Shown one piece after another: positions 48,723 to 55,410 of a stretch of DNA of 64,000 nucleotides. The notes below the pieces were generated by a model. That model was not told where the DNA came from. It saw nothing but the letters and a program-made list of their open reading frames with translations, and did no database searches. Source of the DNA: a phage. The number at the start of each line of letters is the position of its first letter. The first letter of the stretch is position 1. A program made the translations under genes and the position numbers. Where the stretch lies: sequence record PX436236.1, one strand, 5' to 3'.

Positions 48723-49844
48723 ATGGAAAGATTTATGGCAGAATTTGGACAAGGATATGTCCAGGTTCCTACATTATCTGAAAACAATGCTGTAAGGTAT
48801 AAACTTAGTATAGCGGGTAGTTGTACTAAGTCTACCACAAAAGCATATGTTAAATTTCAAGATGGGAACTTCGGTTCCCAGAATTTTCAAAATGGATTAA
48901 ACCTTATAGAAATTGATGTTAGTGCTGAACCTAAAATAGTGGCTAACAAAACTTATAGTTTTACAAAAGATTTTGATGTTATTTCTGAAGCTTTTATAAC
49001 GTATATAAATTCTATACCGGCCAATAGAATAGTTTGTTTAGTATCTTCTGGTAGATTAAATGCTTCACAAAAACTTATCGATTGGTTCCGTGCAGCAGGA
49101 AGTACCGCATTCCCGTCTAAATGGTTGATAGACCGGTTTGAGCCGTCTTATTCTGCATTTTATGTTTCAGGAAGGAATGCTATAGTAATGGAACATGTGC
49201 TTTATAATGATGGGGTATTGGTCGAAGATGTTTCTACTCCATTAGAAGTGGTATTTGATGATATCAGTGATGTCGGTGGTACAGGATATCCTGTCAGAAT
49301 TGTTGAAGACGAAAGCACTTATCTAAGCAATGATGGAGATGAAATTAAGCGATTTCCTACCGAATCTCCTACCACCCCATTAACAGATTATAACATGAAG
49401 CCAGGTGAATTCTTTTACCTTAAGTTTCAATTAATGCGCGACCAAGCTTTAAAAGACGTAGGGACTTCTCAGATGTCTGTTAGATTTTTTAATGCCTCAG
49501 GTGCTTTAACCGGGACAGTTAATATGGACGTTCCTTCCAACGTTCCTGCCGGTGCATGGATGACATTTGAACGGGTTGTAATGGTTCCTGAAGGTACTAC
49601 AGACTTTACCCTTTATGCCAGAAAAACCGCTTCGGCTGGCCAAGGCGGAGTTCGAAATGTTATGTTCGGTGAGATATCTGAATCAGAACCTCAGCCAAAA
49701 CCTGCTGAATTTGGTGTTAACGGTATTCGTATGAACTTTGGTACGGAAACTAAAAATATGGGTACTACCATAGCCCAGCTATATGATAAAACAGGCACTA
49801 AACCTGGTCAGGTTTGGGTCGCTGAATTTAGAGAAAAATATTAA
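48723..49844 (+). CDS. 35: Long tail fibre hinge protein gp35
   Basis: 373 aa (T4 gp35 is about 372 aa); RBS AAGAGG. Confidence 0.8.
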   Translation: MERFMAEFGQGYVQVPTLSENNAVRYKLSIAGSCTKSTTKAYVKFQDGNFGSQNFQNGLNLIEIDVSAEPKIVANKTYSFTKDFDVISEAFITYINSIPANRIVCLVSSGRLNASQKLIDWFRAAGSTAFPSKWLIDRFEPSYSAFYVSGRNAIVMEHVLYNDGVLVEDVSTPLEVVFDDISDVGGTGYPVRIVEDESTYLSNDGDEIKRFPTESPTTPLTDYNMKPGEFFYLKFQLMRDQALKDVGTSQMSVRFFNASGALTGTVNMDVPSNVPAGAWMTFERVVMVPEGTTDFTLYARKTASAGQGGVRNVMFGEISESEPQPKPAEFGVNGIRMNFGTETKNMGTTIAQLYDKTGTKPGQVWVAEFREKY

Positions 49845-50575: not shown

Positions 50576-53500
50576 ATGGCTACTTTAAAGCAAATCCAAT
50601 TTAAAAGAAGCAAAGTAGCCGGTGTACGTCCGGCACCGGCCCAGTTGGCTGAAGGCGAACTGGCTATTAACTTAAAGGACCGATTACTTTTTACTAAAGA
50701 CGATACTGGAGCGATTATCGACCTTGGCTTTGCTAAAGGTGGTAATATTGACGGCAATGTTATTCATACCGGTAACTACAACCAGACTGGCGATTACACC
50801 CTAAATGGTACCTTTACCCAAACAGGTGATTTTAATTTAACCGGTATTGCTCGTGTAACTCGTGACATTATTGCCGCTGGCCAGATAATGACCGAAGGCG
50901 GCGAGCTTATTTCTAAGAGTGCATCGACGTCCCATTTGAGATTTTTTGACGGCGCATCCCGCGAACGTGGCATTATCTTTTCGCCAAATAATGCTGGAGC
51001 GACCACTCAGGTAGTTAATATTCGCGTACAAGATTATGCGACAAGTGGCGAAAGCACCTACGCGTTTTCAGGCAATGGTGTGTTTTCTTCCCCTGAAGTT
51101 TTTGGATGGAAATCTGTATCAACTCCGGTAATTTATACCAATAAAGTTATTACTAATAAAAAGGTTAAAGGTGATTATGATATCTATTCAATGGCCGATA
51201 ATACCCCATTGGCAGAAAGTGAAACAGCTATTAACCACCTTCGTGTTATGCGAAATGCCGTTAGTTCGAGCATTTTCCATGAAGTTAAAGATAATGACGG
51301 AATAACCTGGTATGCCGGCGACGGCTTAGAAGCTTATCTTTGGTCATTTACCTGGTCCGGTGGATTGAAAGCAGGCCATTCTATTTCTGTAGGCACCCCA
51401 GGTAACTCTAAAGGATATTCTGAATTAGGAACGGCTTCAATTGCTCTTGGCGATAATGACACCGGGTTAAAATGGCATCAGGATGGATATTATTTCAGCG
51501 TTAATAACGGCACGAGAACTTTCCTGTACGGCCCTGCAGAAACCACCAGTCTTAGAAAAATGGTTATGGGTTATTCTGTAAACGGTACCGATTTAACCAC
51601 TCCTCCGTCGGAAAACTATGCTTTGGCGACGGTTGTCACTTATCATGATAATAACGCGTATGGCGACGGTCAAACTCTTTTAGGTTATTATCAAGGTGGC
51701 AATTATCACCACTATTTCCGTGGTAAGGGTACTACAAACGTTAACACCGCTGGTGGTTTGTTAGTTACTCCTGGTAATATTGATGTTGTTGGTGGTTCGG
51801 TTAATATTGATGGCCGCAACAATGCTTCTACACTAATGTTCAGAGGAAATACTACAGGAAGTAGTTCAGTTGATAATATGACTATCAGCGTTTGGGGTAA
51901 TACCTTTACTAATGTTGATGGCGACCGTAAAAACGTAATGGAAATATCTGATGCTACTAGCTGGATGCAATATATTCAACGAACAACTGCTGGTAAAGTC
52001 GAATCGGTTCTAAATGGCACCCAGATTGTTAATGAAAACTTGACTGTAGTAAAAAATGCTACATTTGACGGTACAATCAGCGCAGCCGGTGAAATCGCGA
52101 CAAATGCTGTAAATGGTCTTCGTATTTGGAACAATGATTACGGTGCCATTTTTAGACGTTCAGAAGGAAGTCTTCATATTATTCCAACTGCTTACGGTGA
52201 AGGTAAAAATGGTGATATCGGACCACTTCGTCCATTTAGTTTGGCTTTAGATACCGGTAAGGTTGTTATTCCTGACCTAGATTTGAGTTATGCTTCTTTT
52301 GCAGCAAACGGCTATATTAAATTCGGTGGACATGGTGCAGGTGCAGGCGGTTACGATATTCAATATGCACAAGCAGCTCCTGTTTTCCAAGAAATTGATG
52401 ATGACGCGGTAAGTAAATATTATCCTATTGTTAAGCAGAAATTCTTACAAGGAAAAGCTGTTTGGTCTTTAGGTACTGAAATTAATTCCGGGACTTTTGT
52501 TTTGCATCATTACAAAGAAGACGGGACCCAAGGTCATACATCAAGATTTAATGCTGATGGTACAGTTAATTTCCCGGATAACGTGCAGGTTGGCGGTGGC
52601 GAAGCTACTATTAGCAAAAATGGTAACATCTGGTCTGATATCTGGAAAACGTTTACTTCTGCCGGTGATGTAACCAATCTTCTTGGTGCTGTCTATAGCC
52701 GTGTTTCTAAAGAAGGCGACACAATGACAGGCCGCTTAACTCTTAATGCAAACTCGGATGCTATTGTTATTAACAGTGCTGCAACCGAATCTGGTTATGT
52801 GAAAGGACAAAAAGCAGGCGTTAATAACTGGTATGTTGGTAATGGCGGCGCTGATAACGCCCTATCGTTTTATAGTTTCCAAACTAATTCAGGCGTTAAT
52901 ATTCATAATAGTGGAGAAGTTGGTTTAGCTCCTCAAGGGGCGGATACTTTTTATTTTAATAGGGACCGTCTTTATATAAAGGCTTCACAATGGGCTGCAC
53001 ACCAAGCTGGCGATTGGGGAACTCAATGGAAGCAAGAAGCTCCGGTGTTTGTAGATTTTGGTAATGTTGGTAATGATAGTTATTATCCGATTATCAAAGG
53101 AAAATCTGGTATTACTAATGAAGGATATGTATCGGGTGTTGATTTCGGTATGCGTCGTATTACTAATACATGGGCCCAAGCTATTATCCGTGTTGGTAAC
53201 CAGGAAAATGGCAACGATCCTGCAGGTATTTTCGAATTCCACTCTAGTGGTTTATTTTACGCCCCGTCTTTAGTCCAGACTCCTGCAATTGGTGTTGGTA
53301 CTGTTAATGGATTAGGCTCTCCTAGTATTGCTATTGGTGATAACGACACAGGATTATCGCATGGTGGTGACGGCCGAATCAATATGGTTGCCAATGGTAT
53401 GCATATTGCTTCATGGTCTAGTTCTTACCATATCCATGAAGGTCTTTGGGATACCACTGGTGCTTTGTGGACTGAAACAGGAAGAGCTATTATTTCTTTT

Positions 53501-53896
53501 GGTCATTTAATCCAACAAAGCGATGCCTATTCAACATTTGTCCGTGACGTTTATGTTCGTTCTGATATTCGTGTTAAAAAAGACCTTGTTAAATTTGAAA
53601 ATGCTTCTGAGAAGCTTTCTAAAATTAACGGCTACACTTATATGCAGAAACGTGGCCTGGATGAAGAAGGTAATCAGAAATGGGAACCTAACGCTGGTTT
53701 AATTGCTCAAGAAGTTCAAGCTATTTTACCTGAATTGGTTGAAGGCGACCCTGATGGTGAAGCTTTACTTCGTTTGAACTATAACGGTGTAATTGGTTTA
53801 AATACAGCTGCAATCAATGAGCACACTGCAGAAATAGCAGAATTGAAATCAGAGATTGAAGAACTTAAAGCATTAATTAAATCATTGTTAAAATAA
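50576..53896 (+). CDS. 37: Long tail fibre distal subunit gp37 with C-terminal intramolecular-chaperone-like domain
   Basis: 1106 aa; N-terminal fibre motifs; C-terminal about 110 aa contains SDIRVKKD and a coiled-coil tail resembling self-cleaving tail-fibre chaperone domains. Confidence 0.85.
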
Positions 53897-53901
53897 TAAG
53901 A

Positions 53902-53915
53902 GGGGCTTCGGCCCC
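53902..53915 (+). promoter_or_regulatory. C(UUCG)G stem-loop between genes 37 and 38
   Basis: GGGGC-UUCG-GCCCC with no following U tract; the gp38 RBS GGAGG follows immediately. Confidence 0.45.
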
Positions 53916-53927
53916 TTGGAGGTTTAT

Positions 53928-54725
53928 ATGGCAGTAGCAGGACCGTGGATAGGAACTTCTGCAAGGGCGCAGACAGGAGACCCTTGGATGGCAGGAGCCG
54001 CTGTAAGATTAAGAATGGGTGTCCCATTTTGGATGAGTAATATGAACGGTCGGTCTGTTGAAGTAATTCACACCATAACAGCAAACCATAATTTTAATGG
54101 CCAGTGGTTCCGCGACCGCTGTTTTGAAGCAGGCAGCGCACCTATTGTGTTTAATATCACAGGCGATATAGTATCTTACGACCGTAATGTTCCATTGTTC
54201 TTTATGAATGCCGACACACCTAATGAATATGTCAATTTGACTATTCATGGAGGCGTGCATATGTGGGGTCGAGGTGGCCACGGTGGGTGGACCCATTCAG
54301 GTGGCGACGGTAACGGTCAATGGGGCGGTGATTGTATAGTCAACCATATAGGTCATAGACTACGTATTTGGAACTATGGGGTTATCTGTGGCGGTGGTGG
54401 TGGCGGTGGTGGCATTGCGTATCGTCCTCACTCAGGTGCTAACTGGCAAGATATCGGTGGTGGTGGTGGACGTCCATTTGGTCCTGGTGGCGGTGGTGGA
54501 TACTCCGGTGGTGGTGCTTCTTATGAAAGCCCTGGCGGTGGATACGATTATGGTAATGCCCACTCAGGTCGTGGCGGTGATGCTGGCGGCGCTGGCGGCA
54601 ACGCATGGAATGATGGTGGTAAAGTTCTTAAAGTTGGGGCTGGGGGCGGTTCTGGGGCTGCTGTTGCCGTTTCTGCTCCTGCATGGGGCGCGACAGGTAC
54701 GATTTACGGTCCTTGGCTTAGTTAA
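53928..54725 (+). CDS. 38: Receptor-recognising adhesin gp38 (T2/T6 type, glycine-rich motifs)
   Basis: 265 aa from ATG with RBS GGAGG (track uses upstream TTG); conserved N-terminal block [27 protein letters not shown] and multiple poly-Gly motifs. Confidence 0.85.
54391..54413 (+). repeat. (GGY)n simple repeat encoding poly-Gly in gp38
   Basis: GCGGTGGTGGTGGCGGTGGTGGC run; similar shorter runs nearby. Confidence 0.6.
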
Positions 54726-54730
54726 GAATT

Positions 54731-54738
54731 TATAAATA
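54731..54738 (+). promoter_or_regulatory. Late promoter TATAAATA for holin t
   Basis: Exact TATAAATA 19 nt upstream of the t ATG; RBS AAGGAG. Confidence 0.75.
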
Positions 54739-54756
54739 TCTTTAAAGGAGAAAAGT

Positions 54757-55410
54757 ATGGAACCAAAAGTAGGAATATCATTATCAGACCTACTTTTTGG
54801 ACTTCTTGATAGAATTTTTAAAGATACTTCTTCCGGGAAAGTTGTTTTTTCCCGGGTCCTAGTCGTAATATTATTGTTCTTTATGGCATTGGTTTGGTAT
54901 AAAGGCGAGTATATTCTAAACTTTTACAAAGAGACAACTTATGCCTCTTATACTGAAATGATTAGACAAGACCAGGACAATAGATTTAAAATTGCGGCTA
55001 TCGAGCAGCTCCGAATAGTGCATTCTTCTTCAGGCGCAGACTTCACAGCAATATATTCTTTTAGACCAACCAACATGAATTATTTTGTGGATATGGTGGC
55101 TTACGAGGGTAAATTACCGGAAACGGTAGACGCAAAAAACACGGGAGGGTTTCCAATTGACAAAACGTCAGTAGAATATATGGCGGGAGTTAACGGGAAC
55201 TATTTTGAATCAAGTACCGAAACTGTATTCCTTCCTACAAAGAAGAAAACACAATTCACGTATATGTTTTCGTGCCCGTTTTTTAATTTGGATAACGTCT
55301 ACGCCGGCTCGATATCGTTGTACTGGTATGATATCAAACCGGATTTAGGATTTCCTAGACTTTCGTCTATGTGCGGTCAGGCTGGGAGGACATTAGGTCG
55401 AACACGTTAG
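54757..55410 (+). CDS. t: Holin T
   Basis: 217 aa (T4 T is 218 aa); N-terminal TM segment and conserved blocks (DLLFG.LDR.FKD..GKV, YEGKLP, LPTKK, FNLDN.YAG, GR). Confidence 0.9.
   Translation: MEPKVGISLSDLLFGLLDRIFKDTSSGKVVFSRVLVVILLFFMALVWYKGEYILNFYKETTYASYTEMIRQDQDNRFKIAAIEQLRIVHSSSGADFTAIYSFRPTNMNYFVDMVAYEGKLPETVDAKNTGGFPIDKTSVEYMAGVNGNYFESSTETVFLPTKKKTQFTYMFSCPFFNLDNVYAGSISLYWYDIKPDLGFPRLSSMCGQAGRTLGRTR

Follow-up and report, generated by a model that had tools for sequence, protein, structure and literature searches.

A T2-type tail fibre tip with a predicted self-processing gp37 and a gp38 adhesin in a Dhakavirus-like phage

The 64,000-nucleotide stretch of phage DNA analysed here (sequence record PX436236.1, hereafter the window) belongs to a Dhakavirus-like T-even phage of E. 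coli, T2/T6-like, and very probably encodes a T2-type fibre tip made of a self-processing gp37 and a gp38 adhesin. The gene order 35-36-37-38-t is canonical, with the holin gene t directly 3′ of gene 38. The gene families, a Ser/Lys pair in gp37, a pattern of glycine-rich motifs (GRMs) and hypervariable segments (HVSs) in gp38, and identity to published phages are all observed in the window, while the cleavage of gp37, the stoichiometry of one gp38 to three gp37 chains, the fold and the receptor are predicted from homologues.

Cleavage and docking have been published for S16 and T2/T6 (PMC7917993; PMC3157838; PMC6851490). By analogy, gp37 would be synthesised as a precursor of 1106 residues, the last 111 of which (Peptidase_S74) would assist the folding of three chains into a trimer. 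The chaperone would then cleave itself off between Arg995 and Ser996 by means of Ser996 and Lys1001, exposing the fibre end, at which a single gp38 would dock by its N-terminal helical domain (residues 1-40) through Trp7, Trp20 and Trp35. The remainder of gp38 is predicted to form a beta-helix whose glycine-rich stretches pack as a polyglycine-II sandwich, with the loops HVS1-4 at its distal face binding an outer-membrane protein, most likely OmpA.

Table 1. Features of the gp37/gp38 region, in positions of the window.
Feature	Position	Strand	Basis
Gene 37, long tail fibre distal subunit precursor, 1106 aa	50576..53896	+	ORF; Pfam Peptidase_S74, Gp34_trimer, gp37_trimer
DVYVR, aa 991-995, predicted last residues of mature gp37; predicted cleavage after Arg995	53546..53560	+	Alignment to S16 and fPS-phage
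gp37 C-terminal intramolecular chaperone domain (Peptidase_S74), aa 996-1106, 111 residues	53561..53893	+	Pfam PF13884
Ser996	53561-53563	+	
Lys1001	53576-53578	+	
Candidate recombination (gene-conversion) tract identical to vB_EcoM-E33 (OL780484), locus otherwise FB-like	53747..54049	+	Informative sites
Heptad-patterned (coiled-coil-like) tail of gp37 chaperone domain, aa 1076-1106	53801..53893	+	Single heptad register
GC-rich hairpin, UUCG loop, between gene 37 stop and gene 38 ribosome-binding site	53900..53917	+	Folding and conservation
Gene 38, T2-type tail fibre adhesin, 265 aa	53928..54725	+	PF05268, PF21721, 9V85 and 6F45_D matches
gp38 N-terminal attachment domain, aa 1-40, Trp7, Trp20 and Trp35	53928..54047	+	Pfam Gp38_N, aa 1-39
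Predicted polyglycine-sandwich specificity region; two extensions with middle beta-helix strands (aa 133-154) between	54267..54656	+	Segment map and column entropy, 20 gp38
GRM1	54267-54287	+	
HVS1	54288-54323	+	
GRM2 (G8)	54390-54413	+	
HVS2	54414-54455	+	
GRM3	54456-54500	+	
HVS3	54501-54566	+	
GRM4	54567-54599	+	
HVS4	54600-54641	+	
GRM5	54642-54656	+	
Gene t, holin	54757..55410	+	PF11031 Phage_holin_T, E=6.4e-66

A preliminary description of this DNA had pointed to SDIRVKKD and a coiled-coil tail at the C-terminus of gp37, and both are present (residues 996-1003, nt 53561-53584, and residues 1076-1106). By its Pfam score, which lies over the cut-off, the C-terminus is a Peptidase_S74 intramolecular chaperone domain: the PF13884 match (E=1.1e-12; 48.5 bits, cut-off 22) pairs gp37 residues 996-1055 with profile positions 1-57, placing Ser996 at position 1 and Lys1001 five residues downstream. 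The motif S-D-x-R-x-K is unvarying in an alignment of T2, T6, S16, JS10 and the 8JOV fibre; T2 gp37 carries RSDIRLKSN at the position equivalent to SDIRVKKD, and S16 gp37 (6F45_A) matches at E=1e-34, SSDRRIKKD included. A profile of these domains also finds 7DC3, the self-cleaving domain of MYRF, and 3GUD, the released chaperone chain of GA-1, which begins with SDERHK; from residue 1 onward, this chain aligns with the Ser996/Lys1001 motif. In the tail, a single heptad register places N-I-H-I-L-I-L-I-L at the a/d positions (I or L at seven of nine), the remaining registers holding 0-5 hydrophobic residues, and the tail is alignable with that of S16 gp37.

The self-cleaving character proposed for this domain is thus retained as a prediction by homology, the Ser/Lys pair being kept on alignment. 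DVYVR^SDIRVKK aligns with DLNVS^SDRRIKK of S16 and DVYIR^SDGRLKI of fPS-phage, for which the cleavage site has been described (PMC7917993). Autocatalytic loss of the last 113 residues has been reported for S16 gp37 (PMC7917993), and in T2/T6 the gp37 C-terminus is removed and the fibre is capped by gp38 (PMC3157838). Judging from these homologues, gp37 should be cut at DVYVR^SDIRVKK, releasing 111 residues.

Gene 38 starts at an ATG (53928) preceded by GGAGG at 53918-53922, 31 nt after the stop of gene 37, and its own stop ends at 54725, 31 nt before gene t; the mechanical ORF list places the start at a TTG (53916). Its product matches PF05268 GP38 over the whole profile (residues 45-264 on positions 1-218 of 218; E=9.4e-63; 212.4 bits, cut-off 25) and PF21721 Gp38_N over residues 1-39 (E=6.3e-19; 68.1 bits, cut-off 25), as well as the receptor-binding domain of PP01 gp38 (9V85, E=8e-59) and, end to end, S16 gp38 (6F45_D, E=1e-44). 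These two structural matches suggest that gp38 folds as a polyglycine-II sandwich on a beta-helix. Against a comparison set comprising T2, T6, S16, PP01 and LHE83, and against the close relative vB_EcoM_FB (FB), identity is 96% for FB, 61% for T6, 47% for S16 and 43% for T2. Trp7, Trp20 and Trp35 are unchanged in an alignment of gp38 from the window, FB, T2, T6 and S16; in the S16 structure these three residues are the prongs that enter pockets of gp37 (PMC6851490).

These matches bear on the possibility of a T4-type system, in which gp38 serves only as an assembly chaperone and does not enter the virion, receptor binding being left to the C-terminus of gp37. Several database records of close relatives still name the gene 'distal long tail fiber assembly catalyst', a label copied from T4. 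However, T4 gp38 (183 aa) has no similarity to gp38 here (BLASTP E=7.5, three identities over seven residues), whereas the adhesin Pfam families and solved adhesin structures match strongly. Likewise, the N-terminal two thirds of gp37 are alignable with both T2 and T4 gp37, but the C-terminus only with T2; the T4 alignment stops at about residue 661, and the receptor-binding C-terminus of T4 gp37 has no counterpart here. A T4-type identity of gp38 is refuted at the sequence level by this direct comparison, and we consider a T4-type mode of action extremely improbable. The preliminary description had already favoured the T2/T6 type over T4; a T4-type gp38 and a gp37 domain lacking the Ser/Lys dyad were both looked for, and neither was found. 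Among close relatives, gene 38 is in several cases labelled 'assembly catalyst' or 'hypothetical protein'.

The hairpin between the two genes has a 7-bp stem (-16.2 kcal/mol for its 51-nt context, z=-2.1) and is kept in 12 relatives, whose loops read UUCG, UUAG or UUU; in LHE83, the stem sequence is altered yet still complementary. As a terminator it was rejected, having no U tail on the + strand and a T-rich tail only when read on the minus strand, and it is treated here as an mRNA structure. Scans of the whole window with Rfam at gathering thresholds and for tRNAs found nothing.

The T2-type reading extends to the body of gp38, which was divided according to the GRM/HVS scheme of PMC3157838 and the S16 structure (PMC6851490). 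Glycine makes up 26% of gp38 and 36.5% of residues 110-265, with runs of 8, 5, 5, 3, 3 and 3. The G8 run is encoded by GGC GGT GGT GGT GGC GGT GGT GGC; it had been located beforehand at 54391-54413, right to within one base. GGT and GGC account for 81% of glycine codons in both gp38 (55/68) and gp37 (109/135), which indicates that the GGY bias is a phage-wide glycine codon preference rather than specific to the repeats. Across 20 gp38 sequences, variability is highest in the HVSs that separate the glycine motifs (column entropy 0.93-1.19 bits versus 0.29-0.67 bits for GRMs). Indel columns occur in HVS1-4 and at the end of GRM3 and are absent from GRM1, GRM2, GRM4 and GRM5 in these 20 sequences; the glycine runs do not vary in length, the changes within them being G to A or S substitutions.

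It had been proposed that the (GGY)n DNA runs are slippage or recombination hotspots, and they could in principle diversify gp38 in this way. Tandem Repeats Finder reports the G8 run at 54388-54412 with periods of 3 and 12, the 12-nt unit being exact in 2.1 copies. Conserved glycine motifs have been proposed to permit exchange of hypervariable segments (PMC3157838), in an engineered cross gp38 was exchanged only from HVS2 onwards, which places the crossover upstream of HVS2 (bioRxiv 10.64898/2026.04.02.716166), and HVS1 alleles reassort against the HVS2-4 block in the sampled gp38s. However, four of the five glycine motifs are free of indels in the 20 sequences, a small sample that rare events could escape, the alleles of HVS2, HVS3 and HVS4 co-segregate perfectly (five alleles, five combinations), and the sole sharply defined recombination tract in the window has its breakpoints far from the glycine runs. 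Taken together, the data do not bear out the proposal, and we judge a hotspot role of these runs unlikely. Alleles were grouped by single-linkage clustering, whose result for the N-terminal segment depends on input order and which was relied on for the HVS blocks only. One artefact of the clustering is that FB and WG01 fall in different N-terminal-segment clusters although they are identical there.

The tract in question emerged from a comparison with relatives drawn mainly from GenBank phage records, an IMG/VR search having given seven loci. Over 53300-55000, the DNA is 97.9% identical to FB, 95.7% to WG01 and 95.0% to QL01, and over 54240-54725 it is 99.0-99.4% identical to all three. Residues 41-265 of gp38, which hold all the glycine-rich motifs and HVSs, are 100% identical to these phages, but the first 40 residues are only 72-75% identical. 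The holin differs from that of FB at one residue and gp37 at 23 of 1106, all at or before residue 883, leaving the tip and chaperone domain (residues 884-1106) identical to FB. An exact-sequence look-up in a collection of 15 billion proteins returned neither gp37 nor gp38. Informative sites are FB-like over 53300-53746 (108 sites), E33-like over 53755-54026 (29 sites) and FB-like again over 54050-54730 (128 sites, one exception). Between 53747 and 54049 the window has zero mismatches to E33 (100% identity at 53925-54040), and both breakpoints (53746-53755 and 54026-54050) lie outside the (GGY)n runs and far from the glycine runs.

The E33 allele covers the last part of gene 37, the loop base of the intergenic hairpin and the first 40 residues of gp38, and leaves the mature gp37 tip unaltered. 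We regard it as evenly balanced whether the phage is a natural recombinant in which an E33-identical tract of ~290 bp has replaced three neighbouring elements (the end of the gp37 chaperone domain with its coiled coil, the hairpin between the genes and the attachment domain of gp38), the junction being an exchange seam if the replacement is neutral. Should the exchange be functionally neutral, the docking interface of gp38 would accept varied attachment-domain alleles on one gp37 tip, and in practice the adhesins of this lineage would be exchanged at the gp37/gp38 junction instead of at the runs of glycine codons.

The receptor is probably OmpA, because the hypervariable segments are common to OmpA-dependent phages. 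The gp38 of LHE83 (gp213) is OmpA-dependent (PMC10987938); it is 78% identical to gp38 here overall, and its HVS1-4 are near-identical. Type 1 OmpA adhesins of AV119 and FL08 contact OmpA through the segment R165-V-H-S-G-A (PMC12032242), and HVS2 here reads R-P-H-S-G-A, a V-to-P difference at one position of the contact segment that might alter the set of OmpA variants recognised. This change weighs against the assignment, as do the 78% identity of the relatives behind it and the adsorption of LHE83 to BL21 without OmpA, which is still about 50%.

That specificity lies in the segments between the glycine motifs, as the preliminary description held, agrees with their variability among the 20 relatives and with experiments showing that HVSs set receptor choice (PMC3157838, PMC12032242, bioRxiv 10.64898/2026.04.02.716166). 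One caveat is that gp37 probably also matters. As reported second-hand in a review (PMC13517834), WG01 and QL01 differ in host range, the difference maps to gp37, and QL01 receptor-binding-protein segments moved into WG01 widened its host range. Because WG01, QL01 and the window all have the same gp38 receptor-binding part (residues 41-265, without a difference), yet the host ranges of WG01 and QL01 are reported to be unlike, gp38 is probably not the sole determinant. Host range in this lineage could even be set largely by the gp37 distal shaft, or by gp37 and gp38 jointly, rather than by the gp38 loops alone; over 52580-53400, gp37 DNA of the window is only 58-90% identical to WG01. However, in other T-even phages the porin receptor changes when gp38 is swapped directly or when single HVS substitutions are made (bioRxiv 10.64898/2026.04.02.716166; PMC3157838), and host range on wild strains is also shaped by LPS, short tail fibres and defence systems. 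We judge this wider role of gp37 rather improbable, and keep the gp38 loops as the principal candidate for receptor choice.

Since the 1980s it has been established how this module is built and processed and what its loops do, and the structures of S16 and PP01 have refined the picture. Published phages already carry an identical receptor-binding part, so that the module has little discovery value. The use of the present analysis lies in annotation and phage therapy: the gene can be named an adhesin, its predicted use of OmpA can be tested, and its loops have defined coordinates for engineering.

Among known systems, the Dhakavirus phages FB (MT682711), WG01 (KU878968) and QL01 (KT176190) have the same gene order. 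The S16 tip complex (PDB 6F45) shares the three Trp residues, the G8 run and GGGGGRP with gp38 here, 47% identical end to end, and its gp37 tip and chaperone domain align with those here, S-D-x-R-x-K-K-D and the helical tail included. In contrast, HVS1 here exceeds that of S16 by four residues, the two sets of hypervariable loops are unrelated, S16 is cleaved in the context DLNVS^S where DVYVR^S is predicted here, and the host of S16 is Salmonella. LHE83 gp213 and the AV119/FL08 adhesins share the HVS2 core R-x-H-S-G-A, with Pro here for their Val (type 1 segment).

T2 and T6 have the same two-gene module, with a processed gp37 capped by gp38 (PMC3157838). Their gp37 proteins differ in length from the 1106 residues here (1341 in T2, 994 in T6). 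Their hypervariable segments are unlike those here, and the receptor is presumably different; that of T6 is Tsx, and those of T2 are FadL/OmpF. Endosialidase-type chaperones (GA-1 neck appendage 3GUD, T5 L-shaped fibre, K1F endosialidase, MYRF) share the C-terminal position, the length of about 110 residues, the helical tail, and the Ser and Lys five apart at the domain start, although Peptidase_S74 members outside the T-even phages have low identity and are reached only via profile (3GUD, E=4e-4). Unlike in those systems, the cleaved surface here would be the dock for a separate adhesin and not the final tip.

The gene 37 and gene 38 ORFs, coding for the precursor of the distal long tail fibre subunit (gp37) and for a T2-type tail fibre adhesin (gp38), are preceded by genes for gp36 and a gp35-like protein. 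The phage is Dhakavirus-like, within the Tevenvirinae, with DNA 97.9% identical to Escherichia phage vB_EcoM_FB (FB) over 53300–55000 and 96.7% identical to the Dhakavirus relative WG01 over 39001–64000. In Pfam, gp37 matches Peptidase_S74 at residues 996–1055 (E=1.1e-12, 48.5 bits against a cut-off of 22) and Gp34_trimer, with gp37_trimer under its cut-off, while gp38 matches the GP38 adhesin family PF05268 (E=9.4e-63) and Gp38_N PF21721 (E=6.3e-19). A marginal ILEI match (PF15711, E=2.3e-6; 28.4 bits, cut-off 27) in the gp35-like hinge protein is presumably the "GG" domain reported in phage tail-fibre hinge and some animal proteins. The 64-kb window yielded nothing in a tRNA scan, and none of the Rfam families reached its gathering threshold.

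Features of the gene 37–gene 38 locus (nt, window position; aa, residue)
Feature	Position	Strand	Remark
gp35-like hinge protein	nt 48723–49844		
Gene 37 ORF	nt 50576–53896	+	1106 residues; Pfam
gp37 internal repeat 1	nt 51440–51490, 53325–53375		aa ~289–305, 918–933; 17-letter motifs
gp37 internal repeat 2	nt 52376–52445, 53039–53108		aa ~601–623, 822–844; 22-letter motifs
SDIRVKKD of gp37	nt 53561–53584		aa 996–1003
Intercistronic hairpin	nt 53900–53917		
Spacer, gene 37 to gene 38			31 nt
Gene 38 ORF	nt 53928 (ATG)–54725 (stop)	+	265 residues; Pfam
Off-frame ORF	nt 54376–54735	+	119 aa, Val/Leu-rich
G8 run	nt 54390–54413		
Off-frame ORF	nt 54439–54606	-	55 aa, His/Arg-rich
T holin ORF	nt 54757–55410	+	217 residues; Pfam E=6.4e-66
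FB-like stretch	nt 53300–53746		108 informative sites
E33-like stretch	nt 53755–54026		29 informative sites
FB-like stretch	nt 54050–54730		128 informative sites, one exception
gp38 attachment domain	aa 1–40		three conserved Trp
gp38 beta-helix, N-terminal part	aa 41–113		
gp38 GRM1	aa 114–120		
gp38 HVS1	aa 121–132		
gp38 GGD and beta-helix, middle part	aa 133–154		
gp38 GRM2	aa 155–162		G8 run
gp38 HVS2	aa 163–176		
gp38 GRM3	aa 177–191		
gp38 HVS3	aa 192–213		
gp38 GRM4	aa 214–224		
gp38 HVS4	aa 225–238		
gp38 GRM5	aa 239–243		
gp38 C-terminal cap	aa 244–265		

The preliminary description proposed a T2/T6-type arrangement in which gp38 is the adhesin, and matches to solved structures bear this out. 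The S16 (Salmonella phage) adhesin 6F45_D aligns with gp38 over its full length (E=1.4e-44), and the receptor-binding domain of PP01 gp38, structure 9V85 (PMC12892980), matches residues 35–263 (E=7.6e-59). Given these strong matches to solved adhesins, and no similarity to T4 gp38 (E=7.5), a T4-type gp38 is ruled out at the sequence level. Identity is 96% to FB, 61% to T6, 47% to S16 and 43% to T2 gp38, with Trp7, Trp20, Trp35 and the glycine motifs unchanged throughout this alignment. Likewise, T2 gp37 aligns with gp37 at both ends, VYIRSDIRLKSN included, whereas the alignment with T4 gp37 stops at about residue 661. Several GenBank records of close relatives (L014, L018, L022, IME281) label the adhesin "distal long tail fiber assembly catalyst" or "hypothetical protein"; the former is a carry-over from the T4 gp38 chaperone, an unrelated protein.

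The SDIRVKKD motif and coiled-coil tail noticed earlier at the gp37 C-terminus were both located, the tail as one heptad register in the last 31 residues (a/d positions N-I-H-I-L-I-L-I-L). The catalytic Ser/Lys pair is kept: Ser996 is position 1 of the Pfam S74 profile, and no variation is seen at S, D, R or K of S-D-x-R-x-K when gp37 is aligned with T2, T6, S16, JS10 and the 8JOV fibre. A profile from this alignment of C-terminal domains matches 3GUD (E=4e-4), a released chaperone chain from the GA-1 neck appendage that begins with SDERHK, and the self-cleaving MYRF domain 7DC3 (E=5.6e-11). In S16, trimerisation is reportedly followed by removal of the last 113 residues of gp37 at DLNVS^SDRRIKK, baring the gp38 docking surface (PMC7917993), and in T2 and T6 the gp37 C-terminus is reported to be cleaved before gp38 caps the fibre (PMC3157838). 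We infer from the alignment that cleavage here would occur at DVYVR^SDIRVKK, giving a mature gp37 of 995 residues and a released fragment of 111 residues.

Glycine-rich motifs (GRMs) and hypervariable segments (HVSs) of gp38 were mapped using the scheme of Trojet et al. (PMC3157838) and the S16 structure (PMC6851490). Across 20 gp38 sequences, the HVSs have a mean column entropy of 0.93–1.19 bits and the GRMs one of 0.29–0.67 bits, and indels affect HVS1–4 and the end of GRM3. Glycine makes up 26% of gp38, and 36.5% past residue 110. The poly-Gly stretches encoded by (GGY)n DNA, described at 54391–54413, are present, with the eight-glycine (G8) run, also detected by Tandem Repeats Finder, beginning one base earlier. 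Since GGT and GGC make up 81% of glycine codons in gene 37 and gene 38 alike, these "(GGY)n repeats" are poly-Gly in the phage's usual codon usage. The gene 38 glycine codons also account for the window maxima of G+C (0.458) and GC skew (+0.236) at 54001–55000. Two off-frame ORFs in the glycine-rich half look like GGY repeats read out of frame, not genes.

The suggestion that these repeats are slippage hotspots is not supported, as GRM1, GRM2, GRM4 and GRM5 lack indel columns in the 20 sequences. Within G runs, sequences differ by replacement of G with A or S, a pattern that fits structural constraint on polyglycine helix length. In this small sample, the alleles at HVS2, HVS3 and HVS4 co-segregate as a block, with 5 alleles in 5 combinations, and the N-terminal domain, HVS1 and C-terminal cap reassort against it; clustering was single-linkage, and the N-terminal-segment clusters depend on input order. 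Published crosses do place exchanges within gene 38 (PMC3157838; bioRxiv 10.64898/2026.04.02.716166), so recombination may occur at glycine-motif DNA.

Residues 41–265 of gp38 are 100% identical to those of FB, WG01 and QL01 (a further Dhakavirus relative), and DNA at 54240–54725 is 99.0–99.4% identical to theirs. gp37 differs from that of FB at 23 of 1106 residues, all at or before residue 883. The sole patch at the locus divergent from FB is 53936–54026, and identity with phage vB_EcoM-E33 (E33) is 100% over 53925–54040. At sites where FB and E33 differ, E33-like sites are flanked by FB-like sites; therefore about 290 bp were exchanged, with breakpoints at 53746–53755 and 54026–54050 and zero mismatches to E33 from 53747 to 54049. 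Both breakpoints lie outside glycine runs, so recombination at these runs, the proposed hotspots, is not seen here. The tract takes in the coiled coil that ends the gp37 chaperone domain, the hairpin between the two genes and the attachment domain of gp38 (first 33–40 codons of gene 38), and leaves both the tip of mature gp37 and the receptor-binding part of gp38 unaltered. The exact gp37 and gp38 sequences were not found in a large protein collection, at least for gp38 because of this tract.

The hairpin, which separates the stop codon of gene 37 from the Shine-Dalgarno sequence of gene 38, has a 7-bp GC-rich stem and a UUCG loop, with no U tail after it on the coding strand. Twelve relatives keep it, their loops being UUCG, UUAG or UUU, and the stem in LHE83, a Dhakavirus, differs yet remains complementary. 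Stable C(UUCG)G hairpins, which it resembles, have long been known in T4 intercistronic regions.

The receptor of LHE83 is OmpA, and antibody blocking confirmed that its receptor-binding protein is the gp38 homologue (PMC10987938), which shares 78% identity with gp38 here, with HVS1–4 nearly identical. In the type 1 OmpA adhesins AV119 and FL08, the main OmpA contacts are reportedly R165 and the neighbouring V-H-S-G-A (PMC12032242), and their R-V-H-S-G-A compares with R-P-H-S-G-A in HVS2. On the basis of these two likenesses, OmpA is predicted, with moderate confidence, to be the receptor. A second receptor is possible, since LHE83 retained ~50% adsorption on BL21 without OmpA (PMC10987938).

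That the segments between glycine motifs set host specificity is supported, with a caveat: the HVSs are indeed the more variable, but WG01 and QL01 share the receptor-binding part and yet reportedly differ in host range, which exchange of QL01 segments into WG01 is reported to broaden (summarised in the review PMC13517834). Divergence of gp37 from WG01 lies mainly within 52580–53400, where these host-range differences may reside. Mosaicism among close relatives marks this distal shaft region of gene 37, with identity of ~100% to FB and 58–90% to WG01, and, in 60-nt steps, a different pattern again for KIT01, PSD9 and PSD2002. Two internal repeats, seen as secondary matches in the comparison with T2 gp37, suggest duplicated shaft modules. 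The gp37–gp38 module as a whole is a standard system, structurally solved and experimentally dissected, and this copy is near-identical to those of published phages.
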